A DNA stretch of 64,000 nt from a virus (lineage: Duplodnaviria; Heunggongvirae; Uroviricota; Caudoviricetes): IMG/VR virus record IMGVR_UViG_3300025327_000015, one strand, 5' to 3'. The notes under the pieces are model-generated. The model made no database searches. It saw only the letters and a list, made by a program, of their open reading frames with translations, and had not been told where the DNA came from. Positions 23,088 through 60,643 of this stretch are shown here, one piece after another. Numbering within the stretch: position 1 is the first letter of the stretch; each line of letters starts with the position of its first letter. The position numbers were made by a program, and so were the translations under genes.

Positions 23088-24905
23088 TCAGCAGCTAAGG
23101 GCCGTTCCGAGGGCCGGGAATTCACCACTCGGGCAGATACCCTGAACCACCCAGAGAGCACCCTGTGCAGGGCCGAGACGAGCCACGTTCTCGAACGTCT
23201 CCCCGAAGAGCTGGTAGTCGTTCGTCGAGTTAAGCGTGGAGTCACGGACAATCCCGAGTTCGAGCGATCCACCATCAACATGGATAAACTCGCCCTCCGG
23301 GAACATCGCCCACTGAATGTCATCCGGGAAGTCGTCTAGAGCAGTGCCCCCTACTTCGTTGGCAAAGCCCTGAGACGTATCACTCCCGATGTCATCGAGA
23401 TACCACGTAACCGAGATGCCATAACGATCCAGAAGCGCCGCTGCCTGTGCCTGCGCCTGAACGCGATCGAACTGCGTCATCGCAAAGTCTGCAGCCAGCA
23501 GATCCGGAAGGTACTGAGGCAAAAGCACCCGGAAACGAGCATCCTGAGTCATGCGCAGACGGAAACGAATTGCCGCCTGTGCTTTCGTCAGTGCATGCAC
23601 AAGATCAGCGAATGCACCGAGAATTTCTGCCTGTGTAACACTGATCGAAAGTGCTTTGATCCGATCAAGCAAGTAACCCTCTGCGGAACGGGCATGTGCA
23701 GCCATCGTCAGATCGTTCTCATGCGCGATCTTCTCTGGCCACGCCCGCGCGTTGAGGTTTCCATATTCGCGGCAGTGAGAGATAATCGTGACTGCCGTTT
23801 CCGTATACGCCGGGCAAGTAAGGTCCTGACAGGACTTGGTAGCAAAGGTGCCACCAAGAGCATCATCGGACTCCTCGATCACCGTAATTGCCGAAGTAAT
23901 GTCACCGATGATCGTCGCCGTCGGGACGTTCACCCCACCACGATCCGCCTGAAAAGACGGGAGCGAATCACGCACAGGACGCGCCTGAGAAGCGAAATTC
24001 GGCATCGTGTAGAGCGGAGTCAGCGGAGCGCAGAGACCACCGGATGCGACCAGTGCATCACTGCCATAGACCCCAGGAATGTTATTCGGAACAACCTGGG
24101 CAATTCTCTCGGCATTAGCACCCCAATCGCTGGCGTCAAGCACACGCTCCTCCGGGAACGTGAAGTTCGCCATTGCGATCCGGATCTTTTCCTCGACACC
24201 ACCCTGTTGCTTGACAGGCGGACCGCGCCGCACTGCCGTTGTCTTCATTACCCGCGCCAAGGAAAGACGATCGAGAGGCTTTCCGGCACGGACGTCTTGC
24301 AGTCCTCCAGCAGCAACAAGAACACCGCTGGTGTTATCCGGAAGCTGTCGTTCTTTAGAAGGACGGGGCGGCTGCCGACGAAGAGCAGTCTTCTTAACCT
24401 TATTAGGCTTCTTCGTTTCGGGTTCCTTTTCAGCAGAAGCAGTCACTGAGACAGGAACTTCAACTTCAGCCTCCTCCTCCTCTTCAACCTCTTCCTCTGC
24501 TGTCTCTTCAGCAGTTAGTTCGGCAGACTCTTCACCGTCGCCTTCTTCACTGCCGTCACCCTCGTCACCATCATCACCGTCGCCGTCACCTTCATCGCCG
24601 TCGCCTTCAGACTCTTCAGCAACAGCAAGCTGAACTTTGCGACGTTCAGACAAGACCGACTTTCTTTCCTGATATGCGGTATGAGCATCAACCCGAGCCT
24701 TCTGCTCGGCAAGAATGCGTTCGATTTGCTCAACACCTTTTTCATATTGCGCAAGGACTTCTTCGGCCTCCATATCCTTGATGAAGTCCTCATCTTCTTG
24801 ATCAATCAACTCTGCAGCAATCTCATGTTCCTGAAGAAGATTCGCTAGTTCTTCATCAGAAAGCGAACTGAGATCTTCTGGAAGTTCTGGGAAAAGCGGG
24901 TCCAC
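23088..24905 (-). CDS. major capsid protein with fused acidic scaffold-like N-terminal domain
   Basis: N-terminal about 230 aa coiled-coil plus extreme acidic tract (EGDGDEGDGDGDDGDEGDGSEEGDGEE, EEEVEEEEEAEVE), C-terminal about 350 aa globular domain of major-capsid size. Confidence 0.4.
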   Translation of the reverse strand: MDPLFPELPEDLSSLSDEELANLLQEHEIAAELIDQEDEDFIKDMEAEEVLAQYEKGVEQIERILAEQKARVDAHTAYQERKSVLSERRKVQLAVAEESEGDGDEGDGDGDDGDEGDGSEEGDGEESAELTAEETAEEEVEEEEEAEVEVPVSVTASAEKEPETKKPNKVKKTALRRQPPRPSKERQLPDNTSGVLVAAGGLQDVRAGKPLDRLSLARVMKTTAVRRGPPVKQQGGVEEKIRIAMANFTFPEERVLDASDWGANAERIAQVVPNNIPGVYGSDALVASGGLCAPLTPLYTMPNFASQARPVRDSLPSFQADRGGVNVPTATIIGDITSAITVIEESDDALGGTFATKSCQDLTCPAYTETAVTIISHCREYGNLNARAWPEKIAHENDLTMAAHARSAEGYLLDRIKALSISVTQAEILGAFADLVHALTKAQAAIRFRLRMTQDARFRVLLPQYLPDLLAADFAMTQFDRVQAQAQAAALLDRYGISVTWYLDDIGSDTSQGFANEVGGTALDDFPDDIQWAMFPEGEFIHVDGGSLELGIVRDSTLNSTNDYQLFGETFENVARLGPAQGALWVVQGICPSGEFPALGTALSC

Positions 24906-25023
24906 TTCGTACTCCTTTCGACACGGTAAAAACTTCGCGTCGAAGTCCTGTGGACTCCGCGTAACGGATTAGCGCTATGCGCGTTCCTCGTCGAAGAAAT
25001 TAGAACAGACGCTGCGGTCGTTA

Positions 25024-25052
25024 CTTGCACTCAATCTAAAGCTGTGGTATAA
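25024..25052 (+). promoter_or_regulatory. sigma70-like promoter
   Basis: TTGCAC-17 nt-TATAAG. Confidence 0.3.
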
Positions 25053-25227
25053 GTGCCGAACTGCAAAGGCGACGGCCTGCGCAGGGGGTGGCACGAAGAG
25101 CCCTTCTCCGATGGGGCAAAGGCACTCCGGGGGAGACATCCCTACCCGATGGGGTAAACGGAGGTCCGGCGTTATCGATTACATAGCTAATCGGAGCGAC
25201 CGGTGGAGGGAGCTAGTCCCTCTCCCC

Positions 25228-25256
25228 ACTGAAAAGACCCGCTACGGCGGGTCTTT
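25228..25256 (+). terminator. Rho-independent terminator
   Basis: agacccgc-tacg-gcgggtct hairpin followed by TTTTCTTT. Confidence 0.55.
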
Positions 25257-25321
25257 TCTTTGATATCATTACTATCGGCTGGGCCGAAGAGCGTGGTTCA
25301 TCTCCTTATAAGAGAGAGGTC

Positions 25322-25372
25322 ATTGGTTCGAATCCAATCATTGCCTTGGGTGATGTAGCTCAGTGGTAGAGC
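25322..25372 (+). ncRNA. permuted tRNA-like module: T-arm + acceptor-3' strand, 2-3 nt loop, acceptor-5' strand + D-arm (candidate Y RNA tRNA-mimic domain)
   Basis: attgg-ttcgaat-ccaat then cattgcc / tt(g) / ggtgatg ta gctc agtggta gagc; the two acceptor strands pair 7/7 with two G-U. Confidence 0.45.
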
Positions 25373-25605
25373 GCTAAAGCTCCACACTCATTTCATGCCC
25401 GCCCTATACACTTTGATTCGCCTCCGGCAAGAGGCGATGAGAGATGGGCCGAAGAGGAATTGTTCTCACTGGTCAAAGCGGCAAGGCCCCGAAGTACGCC
25501 GCACGGAGCACTAGTGGCTCCGTAAGATCGATTCTTCACACCACGCCCTCTCTCTGTTAGATTTACTCCTGCGAATGGGTCGAAGTGAATGGTTCATCCG
25601 GTACT

Positions 25606-25690
25606 ACCGGGGTAGCTCAAGGGTAGAGCACTGGCTTAGAGCCAGAGGTTAGTGGTTCGAATCCACTCCTAGAACAACCATTGACATAAC
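25606..25690 (+). ncRNA. tRNA-like element (D-arm, anticodon-like hairpin with loop cttagag, T-arm) lacking a pairable acceptor stem
   Basis: gctc-aagggta-gagc; ctgg-cttagag-ccag; agtgg-ttcgaat-ccact; flanking 7-mers accgggg and cctagaa are not complementary. Confidence 0.3.
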
Positions 25691-25705
25691 ACATCCTTCG
25701 CTTTT

Positions 25706-26209
25706 ATGGGTTATCATCGGCCCATGCGGTCAGTTGAAGAGCGTTTCTGGGAGAAAGTAGATCGCTCAGGAGACTGCTGGCTTTGGATCGGCACAAAAGA
25801 CAAGCACTACGACTATGGTCGCTTTCGCATTGGAACAAAATCAACTGACAAGAAAGAGCGTGCTCACCGTGTAGCATGGATGTTGATTTTTGGCCCAATC
25901 CCAGATGGCATGTGGGTACTTCATCACTGTGATAGACCTGCCTGTGTTCGTCCAGAGCATCTCTTCCTCGGCACAAACTCAATGAATCAAAAAGATGCAT
26001 ATCGTAAAGGTAAACATGACTATCTTCACAAACAAGGTCGCAATAGCGGAGAAAAAAATGGAAGCTCGCGACTTACTAAAGAACAAGTTCTGGAAATACG
26101 TACAAGTCATAAGTCACAGTATGCGCTCGCAAAACGATTTGGAATCTCACAGCCAGCTATCTCATACATCCGATCAGGGAAGACCTGGCGACACTTGCTA
26201 GAGTGCTAA
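25706..26209 (+). CDS. HNH endonuclease with C-terminal HTH
   Basis: HRVAWMLIFGPIPDGMWVLHHCDRPACVRPEHLFLGTNSMN HNH_3 motif; similar to 8583..9038 product. Confidence 0.65.
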   Translation: MGYHRPMRSVEERFWEKVDRSGDCWLWIGTKDKHYDYGRFRIGTKSTDKKERAHRVAWMLIFGPIPDGMWVLHHCDRPACVRPEHLFLGTNSMNQKDAYRKGKHDYLHKQGRNSGEKNGSSRLTKEQVLEIRTSHKSQYALAKRFGISQPAISYIRSGKTWRHLLEC

Positions 26210-26334
26210 TTGCGAGTGGGCCGGAGGATCTACGGGTTATCTTCTGTCAAAAGACAACCCCGTATCCGTAATCACGCCCCTCGTCTGCTAATCTCCTGAG
26301 CGCGAGTGGGTCGAACGAGATTCGGTTCTCCCGT

Positions 26335-26390
26335 CATTGGTTCGATTCCAATCGCGCCCATATCACGGGCGCGTAGCTCAGTTGGTAGAC
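26335..26390 (+). ncRNA. permuted tRNA-like module upstream of rsr (candidate Y RNA tRNA-mimic domain)
   Basis: attgg-ttcgatt-ccaat cgcgccc a / tatcac / gggcgcg ta gctc agttggta ...; acceptor strands perfectly complementary; followed by tcctc-GGAA-gagga tetraloop hairpin. Confidence 0.45.
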
Positions 26391-26601
26391 GCAGAGTCCT
26401 CGGAAGAGGAACCCCCGAACTCACAACATATCCCTCGCGATTTGCATCGCTTTCTGTAGATGTGGTACAGTTACAACTGCTACTGAGCCGAAGGGTCAGT
26501 CGGTTATCTTGGCAATAAGAGCAGCCCGTGACGCTCGGGACACCCGACTCCCACACCATGCTCGTAGCTTCAAATCAACTCTTGCCGGGAGGTACAACAC
26601 G

Positions 26602-28182
26602 ATGTCTGATTATCTGACTCGCTACGGAACACGCGTCACGCCGCAGTCTGAGCGGATGCGTGAAGATCAGGTTCTCAACGAAGCTGGCGGCTTTGTTTGG
26701 GAGATCGACGCCTGGGCGCGGATGCGTCGTTTCCTAATTCTCGGAAGCGAAGGGGGATCGTATTACGCTTCCGAATTCCAGGCAACGAAGGATTCGGCTG
26801 CTGCTGTACGCCAGTGCATCAAGGAAGATGGTCTGCGTGCAGTAAAGGAGATCGTAGAAATCTCGCAGAAGGGCCGGGCTCCAAAGAATGATCCGGCACT
26901 CTTTGCGCTTGCCTGCGCGATTTCACTGGGTGATAAGGAAACGCGCTCGGCAGCTGCTGAGGCGCTACCTCTTGTCGCCCGTATTGGAACACATCTCTAT
27001 CATTTCGCCGCCTACGCGGAGACGATGCGCGGTTGGGGCCGGACGATGCGCTGGGCTGTTCAGAACTGGTATGACCGCAATCCCGAGCAGCTTGCACTTC
27101 AAGCGATCAAGTATCGTCAGCGAGATGGCTGGTCGCACCGTGATCTCTTGCGCCTAGCACATCCTTCTCGAAATGAAGAGACAGCTTCGCTCTTTAACTG
27201 GATCACGAAGGGTGTTCCAGAGGAAGGCAAATCTCTATCTGAAATCGTGGGAGGTTTTGAGCAGGCACAAAGCGCTACCACGCCACAGATAACGGCAAAT
27301 CTTGTCCGCGAGTATGGTCTACCACGCGAAGCACTCCAGACTGAGCATCTGAACTCGAAGGAAGTCTGGGCTGCGCTTCTAGAGATGCAGATGCCGATGA
27401 CGGCCATGCTACGTAATCTGGCCACCATGACACGAGTCGGAATTCTCGACTCGAATGATCATCGCAAGCTGGTTCTGAATGCCTTCGATAACCAGGAGGC
27501 GATCACAAACTCGCGTCTGCATCCGCTCGCCATTCTGATCGGAATGGAGACGTATGCACAGGGACACGGTATGCGTGGTCAGCATACTTGGAGCCCAATC
27601 GCTTCCATCGTGGACGCTCTCGACGGTGCTTTCTATAAGGCGTTCGGGAACGTGCAGCCTACTGGCAAGCGCCTACTCGTAGGTGTGGATGCTTCTGGAT
27701 CGATGCGAAGCGGAGTGATCGCAGGTGCTCCAGGAATGATGCCGGTTAAGGCAGCAATGGCAATGGCGCTCGTTTTCACTGCCACCGAGCAGGATGTCGA
27801 AACGGTGCTCTTCGATACCTCACTCTCGACATTCCCACTCTCTGCTCGACAGCGACTGGACGACGTTGTTCGTCGCCATCCAGGCCATGGACGAGGAACA
27901 GATGTCGCGCTTCCGATGCAATACGCAACAGCGAAGAACCGGCAGGTTGATGGCTTCGTTCTTCTAACGGATATGCAGACTTGGGCTGGTTATCAGCATC
28001 CAGCACAGGCGCTTCAGCAGTATCGCGAGCGTAGCGGTATTCCAGCACGCCTTGCCAGCGTCGCACTGATTGCTAATCGCTGGCAGGTGGCAGATCCACA
28101 AGATCCGCTAGCCTTCGAAGCAATCGGATTCGACACCGCTACACCAGAACTCGTTTCCGGCTTCGTTGCTGGTGAGTTCTAA
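26602..28182 (+). CDS. rsr: Ro60/Rsr ortholog (TROVE domain + vWA domain)
   Basis: Collinear similarity to human Ro60 throughout ([26 protein letters not shown] vs [75 protein letters not shown] MIDAS); GGGAGG RBS 7 nt upstream of ATG. Confidence 0.9.
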   Translation: [526 protein letters not shown]

Positions 28183-28355: not shown

Positions 28356-28916
28356 ATGAAAAAAATCCCAACCATTTTTGAGCGCGACTGGGAGGGAGAT
28401 CGCTCGCGGGTTCTCAATCGAATTGTTCCCGGTTGCGAATGGGTATTCACTGGTGAGGGCATCGCTACGCGCAAATACGACGGCAGCGCTTGCATGGTCG
28501 AAGACGGTGTGCTCTGGAAGCGGCATGAGGTTCGTAAAGGAAAGCAAACTCCCGAGGACTTTCGTCTTGTTGAGGATGACTTGGAAACCGGCAAGACAGT
28601 CGGATGGATTCCCGTGAGCGACGGTCCGGAGGATAAATGGCATCGGGACGCTTTCGCCCGCGATATGACTCTGGCAGACGGAACCTATGAACTAGTTGGA
28701 CCAAAAGTTCAGGGCAATCCTGAGGGCTTCGAGCAGCACACTCTCATTCGTCATTCAGATGCTGAAACGTTTATCGTCTTGCGGCGTACTTTTGAAAGAA
28801 TCCGCGATTTGATCTCTGAACTCGATGTGGAAGGCTTCGTCTTCCAGCATCCTGACGGACGCATGGCGAAAATCAAAGGACGAGATTTCGGAATCAAACG
28901 TTCGAGTAAAGAATGA
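28356..28916 (+). CDS. small ATP-dependent nucleotidyltransferase, ligase family (KxDG ligase, RNA-ligase-like)
   Basis: Motif I KYDGSAC, motif IV EGFVFQ, motif V MAKIKGRD; 186 aa; stop overlaps next start (ATGA). Confidence 0.55.
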   Translation: MKKIPTIFERDWEGDRSRVLNRIVPGCEWVFTGEGIATRKYDGSACMVEDGVLWKRHEVRKGKQTPEDFRLVEDDLETGKTVGWIPVSDGPEDKWHRDAFARDMTLADGTYELVGPKVQGNPEGFEQHTLIRHSDAETFIVLRRTFERIRDLISELDVEGFVFQHPDGRMAKIKGRDFGIKRSSKE

Positions 28917-30013: not shown

Positions 30014-30098
30014 GGAGGCTCGCAAGGCTGGCGTGCTCATCCGCCTTGAAAGCGGTGATGGTCGAAAGGCCGTACAGGTTCGATCCCTGTAGCCTCCG
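30014..30098 (+). tRNA. tRNA-Ser-like (anticodon UGA), class II with long variable arm
   Basis: Acceptor ggaggct/agcctcc, anticodon loop cttgaaa, variable hairpin ggtc-gaaa-ggcc, T-arm acagg-ttcgatc-cctgt. Confidence 0.5.
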
Positions 30099-30101
30099 CT
30101 T

Positions 30102-30184
30102 GGAGGGTCAAGTCTCAAGGAGAGACGGCGGGCTGCTAACCCGTTCGCGGTGCAAGCCGTGGGGTTCAAATCCTCGGCCCTCCG
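30102..30184 (+). tRNA. tRNA-Ser-like (anticodon GCU), class II
   Basis: Acceptor ggagggt/gccctcc (one G-U), anticodon stem cggg/cccg with loop ctgctaa, long variable arm, T-loop ttcaaat. Confidence 0.45.
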
Positions 30185-59352: not shown

Positions 59353-60183
59353 ATGTCTAAGACGACTACCAAGCCGCGAAAGCGGCTATCCGCCGCGGAC
59401 CGTGAAACCCTCACGGCGGCCGAATCGCAGCTCGGATACTTCTCCGAGGAGATTCGGGCCATCGCAGTGTCCATCGGCCGGGAATGGGTCAGAGTTGGCA
59501 TCCTGCTAGCGCAGGGAGCCGCACTACTCGAATCCGTCCCCGCGTTGATGGCCCAGTTCGGATCGCCCGAAGGCTGGGCCCGGACCGTTCTCCCGGAATA
59601 CTCTGGGGGAGAGGGAACCGGCGGTATCTGGGGCTCATCCCCCGCGTACCGTGCGTTGCAAGCCGGTCGCGTTGCGCTGGTTCTAGGTGACGACGTCGGC
59701 GATGCGAGTGTCGCAGCCCTCGTTCCGCTTCACCGGGTTATCTCCGGCGTCAAGCCGGAGGACCAGGAGAAAGCGGAGACGAAGGTCCGCACCCTCTGGA
59801 CCCGTGCAGGAAAGCGGGGGACCCCTACCCTGGCGTCCATTACGAAAGTTCTGGACGGAATGGCAGGGACCCGCGGGAAGCCGAAGGGGTCCGAGAAGAC
59901 TCCGGGGTCCGGGCGGAAAGGAAAGGGGAAAGCATCGGCTAAGCCTGCCACCACGCAGGCCGAGCCGGAGTTGACTCAGAAGGACCTTTCCGCTATCGGA
60001 CAGAAGGTGGCGGGCATCCTGAAGAACTATCCCGACGAATCTCGTCGTGCGGTTCTTCTCGCCATGCACGCTACCGCCGCATTGTGCATAGACTTTGGTG
60101 CGGCGAACGTTTCCGGAGTCATTCTTGCCCGCCTGAAGGAAAGCGGGAACGGGAAGACCCGGAAGGCTAAGGATTCCAAGTGA
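59353..60183 (+). CDS. Lys/Arg-rich hypothetical protein
   Basis: 276 aa; GGGAGG RBS; basic K/G-rich central segment. Confidence 0.4.
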   Translation: MSKTTTKPRKRLSAADRETLTAAESQLGYFSEEIRAIAVSIGREWVRVGILLAQGAALLESVPALMAQFGSPEGWARTVLPEYSGGEGTGGIWGSSPAYRALQAGRVALVLGDDVGDASVAALVPLHRVISGVKPEDQEKAETKVRTLWTRAGKRGTPTLASITKVLDGMAGTRGKPKGSEKTPGSGRKGKGKASAKPATTQAEPELTQKDLSAIGQKVAGILKNYPDESRRAVLLAMHATAALCIDFGAANVSGVILARLKESGNGKTRKAKDSK

Positions 60184-60643
60184 ATCCGCCTAGCCTGCGA
60201 GTCTGGTCAACGATCCTCGCGAATCGCATCGGTACGCTCGATGCAATAGCGGGGCACAAGATCCGCTAGACAATCCACTACTTGACTACCGGCTTAGGTT
60301 GACTGGGGGACCCGAAAGGGTCCCCCTCTTTTTGGTCCCGGACGGGTCCTCCCCCTAATCCCGGACGGACCCGCGGGATAGGAAGGTCCTTCATTCCCGC
60401 GCGGCGGGAATAATCCCTGCCTCCCCGGATCCTTCCCGTGCGGGGGAGGGAACCCCCTGCCTCATCGGTTCGCCACCTTGTGTCCTGCCTTGACAACGTA
60501 CGAGGGAGGCGTGAGACAATGTAAGTGCGGGCTCGGCGCGTTTCGGGCGCTGATAGACCTGACTCCCCACGCTACCGCGTCGGCCCGCATCCTTCGGGAT
60601 TCTGAAACGTTTGAGAATCCCCCGTCCGGGAAGGAGACCCGCG

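Follow-up and report, generated by a model that had tools for sequence, protein, structure and literature searches.

The stretch of phage DNA analysed here (64,000 nt, hereafter the window) carries on its plus strand, at positions 25028-25260, a 233-nt cassette that represents an insertion relative to the syntenic phages L127, L132 and L153. We consider, with about even confidence, that this cassette is a self-contained, moron-like accessory transcription unit, whose product would be a small RNA (sRNA) of ~205 nt and not a protein. The first-pass annotation had proposed at this place a regulatory or Y-like sRNA; the discrete promoter-to-terminator non-coding unit implied by that proposal is supported by the sequence signals, by the boundaries of the insertion and by one distant homologue, while its Y-like part is not supported. 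The sequence family is undescribed and its kind is familiar (i.e. an accessory promoter-to-terminator unit for a phage sRNA); the cassette is most likely not a member of the adjacent Rsr/Y-RNA set.

According to this reading, the host sigma-70-type RNA polymerase would initiate at ~25060 from an extended -10 promoter and would produce an RNA of ~205 nt, predicted to fold into a hairpin at the 5' end, a central domain made up of small G-C hairpins whose loops are rich in C/U, and a pair of hairpins at the 3' end. Transcription would stop at a strong terminator (25231-25265), and as the Y-RNA array, judging by its sequence, keeps a promoter of its own right past this point, the cassette would neither drive nor silence the array. 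The most likely mode of action would be in trans, with the conserved core (25122-25182) or the exposed loops of the transcript acting on an RNA or a protein of the host or the phage.

A variable slot within the structural gene cluster

The window is part of a phage-like contig of ~109 kb, with identical copies in several metagenomes. The ten contigs that encode this Rsr represent one identical phage (the six inspected were identical over 7.5 kb) and thus provide no population-level signal of constraint. To the left of the cassette, a minus-strand gene of 605 aa that ends at 24905 encodes the major head protein (phrog_777, E = 5e-64) and is surrounded by tail, adaptor, tape-measure and portal genes. 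Within this structural cluster we observed a plus-strand island comprising, in this order, the cassette, six Y-RNA-like modules (YrlA partial matches plus a tRNA-like unit), an HNH gene, rsr (26602-28182, whose product has TROVE and vWA_Ro60 domains), an RNA-ligase-family gene and tRNAs. The first-pass annotation had placed the unit directly upstream of the tRNA-mimic modules and rsr; in the island, the cassette precedes the six modules, the HNH gene and rsr. As a whole, the island looks like an RNA-repair and tRNA module; the RNA-ligase-family gene (phrog_14301, E = 6e-61; 28356-28916, plus strand) and two tRNA-Ser genes (30014-30184, plus strand) are situated after rsr.

Eight syntenic relatives were fetched via their Rsr proteins (68-78% identical), and all eight share with the window a ~120-nt block upstream of the capsid gene, the end of which (TGCGG(A/T)CGT) corresponds to window positions 25013-25021. 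In L127, L132 and L153 this conserved block runs into ...CCTTGATAT(C/A)GT and the first Y module follows 8-10 nt later. The alignment revealed that in these three phages the flanks are joined directly (...CGTACCTTG/ATATCGT..., junctions being marked by slashes), and that the window has the same flanks and 233 extra bases (...CGTTACTTG/CAC...CTTTG/ATATCAT...). As a TTG is present at both sides, the edges of the cassette cannot be placed more exactly. The inserted DNA also deviates in base composition, with a GC content of 58.8% for the cassette and 62.6% for its body, as compared to 50-55% for the flanks.

Across the eight syntenic phages, the slot that separates the leader of the capsid gene from the first Y module ranges from 0 extra nt to an ORF of 211-218 aa: L129, L133 and L151 have 40-75 unrelated bases in it, and L130 and L152 have the ORF. 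This slot ORF (2484-3119 in L130, 2575-3231 in L152) encodes CxxC pairs, has weak Pfam matches (zinc-ribbon type; HTH_7 at E = 0.03) and comes with its own TGGTATAGT promoter, being another accessory unit at the same hot spot. Furthermore, in L133 (1755-1885) an imperfect hairpin of ~110 nt (CTTGGAGCTGCTG...CAGCAGCTCCAAG) is located between two Y modules and constitutes a structured insert of non-Y type. By using nhmmer, blastn and tblastn, we found no cassette-like sequence in the eight syntenic loci, in 160 further rsr loci (GTDB genomes and IMG/VR contributing 80 each) or in 13 loci of related capsid genes. That eight related phages do without the cassette indicates that it is dispensable.

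Transcription signals and the predicted RNA

The promoter described in the first-pass annotation (TTGCAC-N17-TATAAG) is present, with its first hexamer at 25025-25030, one base above the 25024 initially given; overall, the features of that annotation lie 1-3 nt away from the positions assigned to them and are above chance. The -35-like TTGCAC matches TTGACA in three of six positions, with the TTG kept, and is separated by a 17-nt spacer from the TATAAG (25048-25053) of an extended -10 element, TGgTATAAG (25045-25053, TG at 25045-25046). The -10 hexamer is devoid of the -7 T and the consensus against which both boxes are scored may not be that of the host; with such a -10 and a -35 of three matches in six, the promoter was not listed by a generic scanner. 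In the 64 kb (both strands), the pattern TTG-N16-18-TGnTA with at least 5/6 matches to TATAAT occurs at three sites, as compared to 0.92 in shuffles. From the promoter geometry, transcription is predicted to start at the A in position 25060, 7 nt past the -10 hexamer, and the Y modules likewise begin ~7 nt past their TGnTAnnnT boxes. Moreover, a Y module of L133 is preceded (1888-1915) by TTGCAC-N16-TATAAGT, which is nearly the promoter of the cassette. The occurrence of TGnTA-type promoters ahead of Y modules, both here and in the relatives, points to a promoter type that is native to this phage group.

At the other end of the cassette, the strong intrinsic terminator that had been placed at 25228-25256 was recovered at 25231-25265 of the plus strand: its hairpin (25231-25258; -21.4 kcal/mol) has a perfect stem of 12 bp, with 7 G-C pairs and a UACG loop, and is followed by a U-rich tail (CUUUUC of the 3' arm, then UUUGAU). 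Strict intrinsic terminators number two in the 64-kb window (0.2 in shuffles), and that of the cassette is one of them. The other (60305-60326, plus strand) consists of GGGGGACCC-GAAA-GGGTCCCCC followed by TCTTTTT, and is located after the ORF 59353-60183. Read on the minus strand, the hairpin of the cassette is followed by AGUGGGG, and would be a weaker terminator in that direction. Promoter and terminator are found in the right order and orientation, 180 nt apart, and as both are rare, a complete unit of this kind is unlikely to have arisen by accident.

The RNA delimited by these signals is predicted to be structured. Its 5' end would form the hairpin CUGC-AA-AGGC-GACG-GCCU-GC-GCAG (25061-25084, pair probabilities of at least 0.96). 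The repeated motif noticed in the body was borne out, with copies at 25108-25122 and 25146-25160, and extends to a match of 17 in 20 between 25101-25120 and 25140-25158. The first extended copy (CCCTTCTCCGATGGGGCAAA, 25101-25120) would form a small hairpin with the loop UCUCCGAU. The second (CCCTACCCGATGGGGTAAA, 25140-25158; in its extended form CCCTAC-CCGATGGGGTAAA) lies inside the conserved core and would form the hairpin ACCC-GAUG-GGGU (25144-25155, pair probability 0.97). A self-similarity of the body as high as this was reached in only 5 of 1000 and 2 of 300 dinucleotide shuffles. Tandem Repeats Finder detected no tandem array in the cassette, and the repeat consists of just these two imperfect copies (17/20 identical).

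Farther downstream, the GGUCCGG string that had been pointed out is present (GGTCCGG at 25163-25169) and overlaps the base of a predicted hairpin, H4 (CGGCGUU-AU-CGAUUA / UAAUCG-G-AGCG-A-CCG, 25167-25202, pair probabilities 0.87-0.94). The ggaggga/ccctctcc hairpin likewise exists as GGAGGGA-GCUAG-UCCCUCU (H5, 25205-25223), its two arms pairing with a probability of at least 0.94. Fold prediction, named as a check by the first-pass annotation, found the body more stable than shuffles, with z = -5.4 when the terminator is included and z = -3.1 when it is left out; in the latter case the plus strand folds better than the minus strand, for which z = -2.5. The stretches ACGAAGA (25093-25099) and UCUCCGAU (25105-25112), together with the hairpin loops, are predicted to be exposed. 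All of these helices are predictions from a single nucleotide sequence.

The open reading frame and its distant relative

The statement that no ORF follows the promoter proved incorrect as written: an ATG-initiated ORF of 50 codons is found at 25111-25263, in a frame that stays open for 78 codons. When this open frame (25027-25260) was translated and searched against 1.84 billion representative proteins, a single relative was recovered (P0121, sequence MTHLFDSACYVCYDLVTLEATAERGGDRIGPSIMGLRYSGGDIPARWSKRKSGAITYA, E = 1e-6), a 58-aa JGI 'hypothetical protein' that is the sole member of its cluster and stems from a 1,924-nt JGI contig of another metagenome. A profile built from the frame of the window and P0121 retrieved P0121 again and nothing more, and a search with the remaining five frames joined into one query gave no match; the contig of P0121 is absent from IMG/VR. 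A 516-aa 'protein' of 13-aa tandem repeats (P0122), with E = 6e-5 to the cassette translation, was judged to be a probable repeat-driven match and rejected. It consists of ~20 tandem copies of the unit GVDVPSLMSRYGS, with a period of 39 nt that is near the 38-nt spacing of the motif copies in the cassette.

P0121 aligns without gaps to window positions 25048-25182, with 26 of 45 residues identical. It is known as a protein translation, and what we say of its nucleotides derives from parsimony back-translation. On this basis at least 32 changes in 138 nt are required (i.e. an identity of at most 77%), and they are concentrated outside 25122-25182, a conserved core that is possibly at least 90% identical in P0121 (BLASTP SGGDIPTRWGKRRSGVIDY vs SGGDIPARWSKRKSGAITY). 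The alignment begins at the -10 box, where W-Y-K (TGG TAT AAG) is matched by C-Y-D (TGY TAY GAY), which implies that the extended -10 element is kept; the residues upstream admit TTGAYT, a 17-nt spacer and TAYGAY with TG. Within the 5' hairpin, the G-C pair 25063-25082 must change on both sides in P0121 and still pairs (C/U-G), and further pairs are possibly compensatory, depending on codon choice. Elsewhere, the CCG of the first repeat copy is lost (Pro to Ile) and the CGAA at 25094-25097 must become GNAU (Thr-Lys to Arg-Ile). That a relative so diverged appears to keep the promoter geometry together with a long, near-identical core suggests selection.

We give next to no probability to the idea that 25111-25263 encodes a small, basic 50-aa protein, or that a ~25-aa peptide is made, despite the length of the open frame, the ATG common to P0121 and the 45 codons aligned without a gap. 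No Shine-Dalgarno sequence precedes the ATG, the stop codon lies past the U-tract of the terminator, and we observed neither a gene call at the cassette in six public contigs nor a Pfam match for its ORF. Moreover, the alignment starts 21 codons upstream of the sole start codon and takes in the -10 box, the two frames end differently (25 codons past the shared ATG in P0121 and 50 in the window, beyond the terminator), and no protein relative other than P0121 exists among the 1.84 billion representatives. As a gene, the 50-aa ORF is not credible. As the alignment starts at the -10 box, the promoter geometry appears to be kept and the ends of the frames differ, P0121 itself is best explained by homologous DNA on which an ORF was spuriously called.

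Y RNAs, rival readings and known systems

Bacterial Y RNAs bear the motif GNCGAAN0-1G near their 5' end (Chen et al., PMC4201824), and for the Thermus phage phiLo a looser criterion was used, in which a terminal stem adjoins an internal loop containing CGAA (PMC12135203). The Y-like character first ascribed to the cassette found no support in these terms. A regular-expression search yielded no match of GNCGAAN0-1G in 25054-25265, and none of the relaxed form GNCGRA, while 25266-26601, with the downstream modules, yielded five (six when relaxed); the nearest string in the cassette (GGCACGAAG) has one base extra. Furthermore, ARAGORN detected no tRNA-like arm (T-arm/D-arm) in the cassette and cmscan no YrlA at E<=10 (also in a dedicated 236-nt search), the only YrlA matches at this level being at 25315-25375 and 26328-26397. 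The GGUCCGG string is part of a predicted local hairpin and not of a terminal helix of the 5' and 3' ends.

That the RNA belongs to the Y RNAs as a divergent member, or is otherwise a ligand of the phage Rsr, we regard as very doubtful. Its position next to six Y-like modules and rsr would favour such an identity, as would the GGUCCGG...GUUAUC string, the CGAA at 25094-25097 (predicted to be unpaired with a probability of 0.94, as part of an exposed ACGAAGA beside a 4-bp long-range GGGG/CCCC closure) and the fact that Rsr-bound RNAs can elude bioinformatic detection (PMC4201824). However, the full Y-like stem-bulge-stem fold comes at +5.2 kcal/mol (i.e. when forced, it is 5 kcal/mol worse than the minimum-energy fold), the sole CGAA cannot be conserved in P0121, and the unit accompanies rsr in none of the eight syntenic relatives and in none of the 160 other rsr loci, in addition to the motif, arms and YrlA match that it lacks. 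In comparison with the described Y RNAs (YrlA, YrlB, Yrl1, Yrl2; RF02553; PMC4201824, PMC12135203), the cassette is alike in lying in the same noncoding stretch upstream of rsr, in its CGAA and GGUCCGG-like string and in its predicted structured RNA of similar length, but it differs by having no GNCGAAN0-1G, no tRNA-like domain and apparently no terminal bulged helix, by not being conserved with rsr and by a CGAA that its homologue does not conserve. It is just as doubtful that the ~205-nt RNA is a lineage-added partner or regulator of the Rsr/Y-RNA/RNA-ligase island. Such an RNA could be bound by Rsr without having the canonical motif, or could act as an sRNA to tune either the island or a host factor for RNA quality control, and it would place the cassette in a locus already under RNA-level control, through a candidate anti-RBS element upstream of one Y module (see below). 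We argue that the RNA should not be counted with the Y RNAs of this rsr locus, a negative but useful outcome.

Among the readings that grant the cassette no RNA function of its own, a passive remnant of foreign or rearranged DNA, which merely happens to contain a promoter and a terminator, appears unlikely, although it deserves a hearing: the cassette is confined to a single lineage and a hypervariable slot, it has no homologue in any fetched locus or annotated collection (blastn found no match in INPHARED phages or PLSDB plasmids, and core-block patterns none in IMG/VR), and its weak local similarities to pieces of Y modules could mean a scrambled origin. These similarities comprise GGGTGGCACGAAGAGC vs GGCTGGGCCGAAGAGC, and GGCAAAGGCACTCCGG vs the first Y module of L132 (local alignment score 27); as this best score was equalled in 9 of 200 shuffles, a derivation from Y modules was considered marginal and was set aside. 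Against a remnant stand the completeness and correct order of promoter, body and terminator, and the retention of promoter geometry and core in the diverged P0121. We find it rather improbable that the cassette is a promoter-plus-terminator insulator, or a unit of regulated read-through, that is placed between the control region of the capsid gene and the Y/rsr island, tunes transcription into the latter and yields the RNA as a by-product. Its size and layout do recall those of a constitutive promoter that gives a short, terminated transcript ahead of an operon, the near-symmetrical hairpin (with A-tract and U-tract arms) could slow minus-strand transcription toward the capsid gene, and on its left the cassette directly adjoins the 5' end of the leader that is conserved ahead of the capsid gene. 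Read-through is not needed, however, for the first Y module, the right-hand neighbour of the cassette, which has its own extended -10 (TGATATCAT, 25261-25269, plus strand; TGATATCGT, TGATATAGT and TGATATATT in L127, L132 and L153) intact just past the terminator. Moreover, inspection by eye revealed no GCGGGUC-like competitor of the terminator arm upstream, relatives exist without any such unit, and the homologue conserves the body of the RNA (core 25122-25182) and not just the signals.

A cis-acting leader that senses a ligand and governs the entry of transcription into the island, for example a riboswitch or attenuator of host origin, is highly improbable, even if a promoter, a structured and internally repeated RNA of ~170 nt and a terminator correspond to the layout of a transcriptional riboswitch, and internal pseudo-repeats are found in several aptamer classes. 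Rfam 15 gave no match in the cassette at gathering thresholds, and at E<=10 (in 1.8 kb, and in the 236 nt alone) all matches fell far below threshold. These sub-threshold matches (RsmY, istR, isrB and others) include the terminator hairpin, with the exception of one weak match to a miRNA model, and the best of them (RsmY, 22 bits against a threshold of 57) covers the terminator only. No aptamer was recognised at this level, nor did we see an alternative, antiterminating structure; the next unit possesses a promoter, and the homologue does not keep the first repeat copy. Glycine, c-di-GMP and other riboswitches, of which the CCGAUGGGGCAAA motif is suggestive, were dismissed for want of any Rfam match at E<=10. 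Scans for the twin motif in IMG/VR, JGI metagenomes and GTDB genomes returned only unrelated iteron-like and coding repeats, and a check with nhmmer and blastn gave nothing. With nhmmer, no relative emerged at E<=100. In five of the JGI metagenome contigs hit by the scan (L141, L142, L144, L145 and L146), units of CCGATGGGGGAAA-CCCCCAC(TG) recur every ~35 nt ahead of ORFs; these arrays resemble iterons or a replication origin and have no relation to the cassette. A ToxI-like type III antitoxin does not fit either, as near-identical tandem repeats of ~34-45 nt are absent and the downstream elements are Y modules, an HNH gene and rsr, not a toxin endoribonuclease gene.

The preferred reading, a stand-alone accessory sRNA unit, has several counterparts among phages. 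Morons, a concept of Hendrix and colleagues, are reportedly accessory units in which a gene comes with a promoter and a terminator, and they interrupt gene pairs that are neighbours in related phages. Similarly, the cassette is cleanly inserted between elements that are contiguous in L127, L132 and L153, possesses a promoter and a terminator of its own (both recognised at the level of sequence) and deviates in GC content, but it holds no credible ORF and, in place of a protein gene, apparently carries a non-coding RNA of ~170 nt as its payload. Phages and prophages also encode stand-alone sRNAs that end at intrinsic terminators (for example lambda OOP, DicF and IpeX), and the cassette resembles them in size range, in its sigma-70-type promoter and in a 3' hairpin with a U-tail that follows another stable hairpin; unlike them, it matches no described family in sequence or structure. 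In the PR'-tR' unit of lambda, which gives a terminated '6S' transcript of 194 nt, a transcript of ~200 nt likewise runs from a promoter to a strong terminator, and a gene block follows directly. In contrast to the lambda unit, the cassette came with neither an antiterminator gene nor a binding element that we could identify, it precedes a block equipped with promoters of its own, and it is missing from sister phages. No target emerged from a duplex-energy scan of the 125 translation-start regions of the window, as the best value (-70.9) equalled the shuffle mean (-71.8), with a method that allows unrealistically long duplexes and is uninformative. If expressed, the cassette would add a non-coding example to the phage moron class; it also marks the slot between leader and Y array in this phage group as a hot spot for the gain of accessory units.

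The promoters of the Y modules, the candidate anti-RBS element directed at rsr and the predicted structured leader of the capsid gene may be more interesting than the cassette itself. A TGnTAnnnT box lies ~7 nt ahead of the first stem base in five of the six Y modules (25261, 25555, 26196, 26286 and 26463, plus strand), and the same holds in the relatives; with an extended -10 of their own, the modules look like separate short transcription units and not like one processed precursor. Upstream of the Y module that has no TGnTA box, the hairpin CCTCCGGCAAGAGG (25418-25436) is reverse-complementary to CTCTTGCCGGGAGG (26578-26592), where ribosomes would bind ahead of rsr. Its 8-bp core (GGCAAGAG/CUCUUGCC) is fully paired in all nine phages (the window, L127, L129, L130, L132, L133, L151, L152 and L153). 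In L130 and L153 the core is changed to GGCAAGGG/CCCUUGCC, with one pair covarying, at a score that was equalled by 22 of 500 shuffles. As an anti-RBS element, the hairpin may couple the translation of rsr to the Y-RNA transcripts. The block of ~120 nt that precedes the major head protein gene (24906-25024, minus strand) is conserved in nine phages, and in its RNAalifold prediction 9 of 29 pairs show compensatory changes. In this model its 5' end, ACG(U/A)CCGC, pairs with AAGUGGAC, within which lies the GUG start codon, and this suggests a structured leader that would sequester the codon. In more distant capsid loci (L314-L326), a hairpin of the GGAgUCCcCUGGACcCC type is found at the same place.
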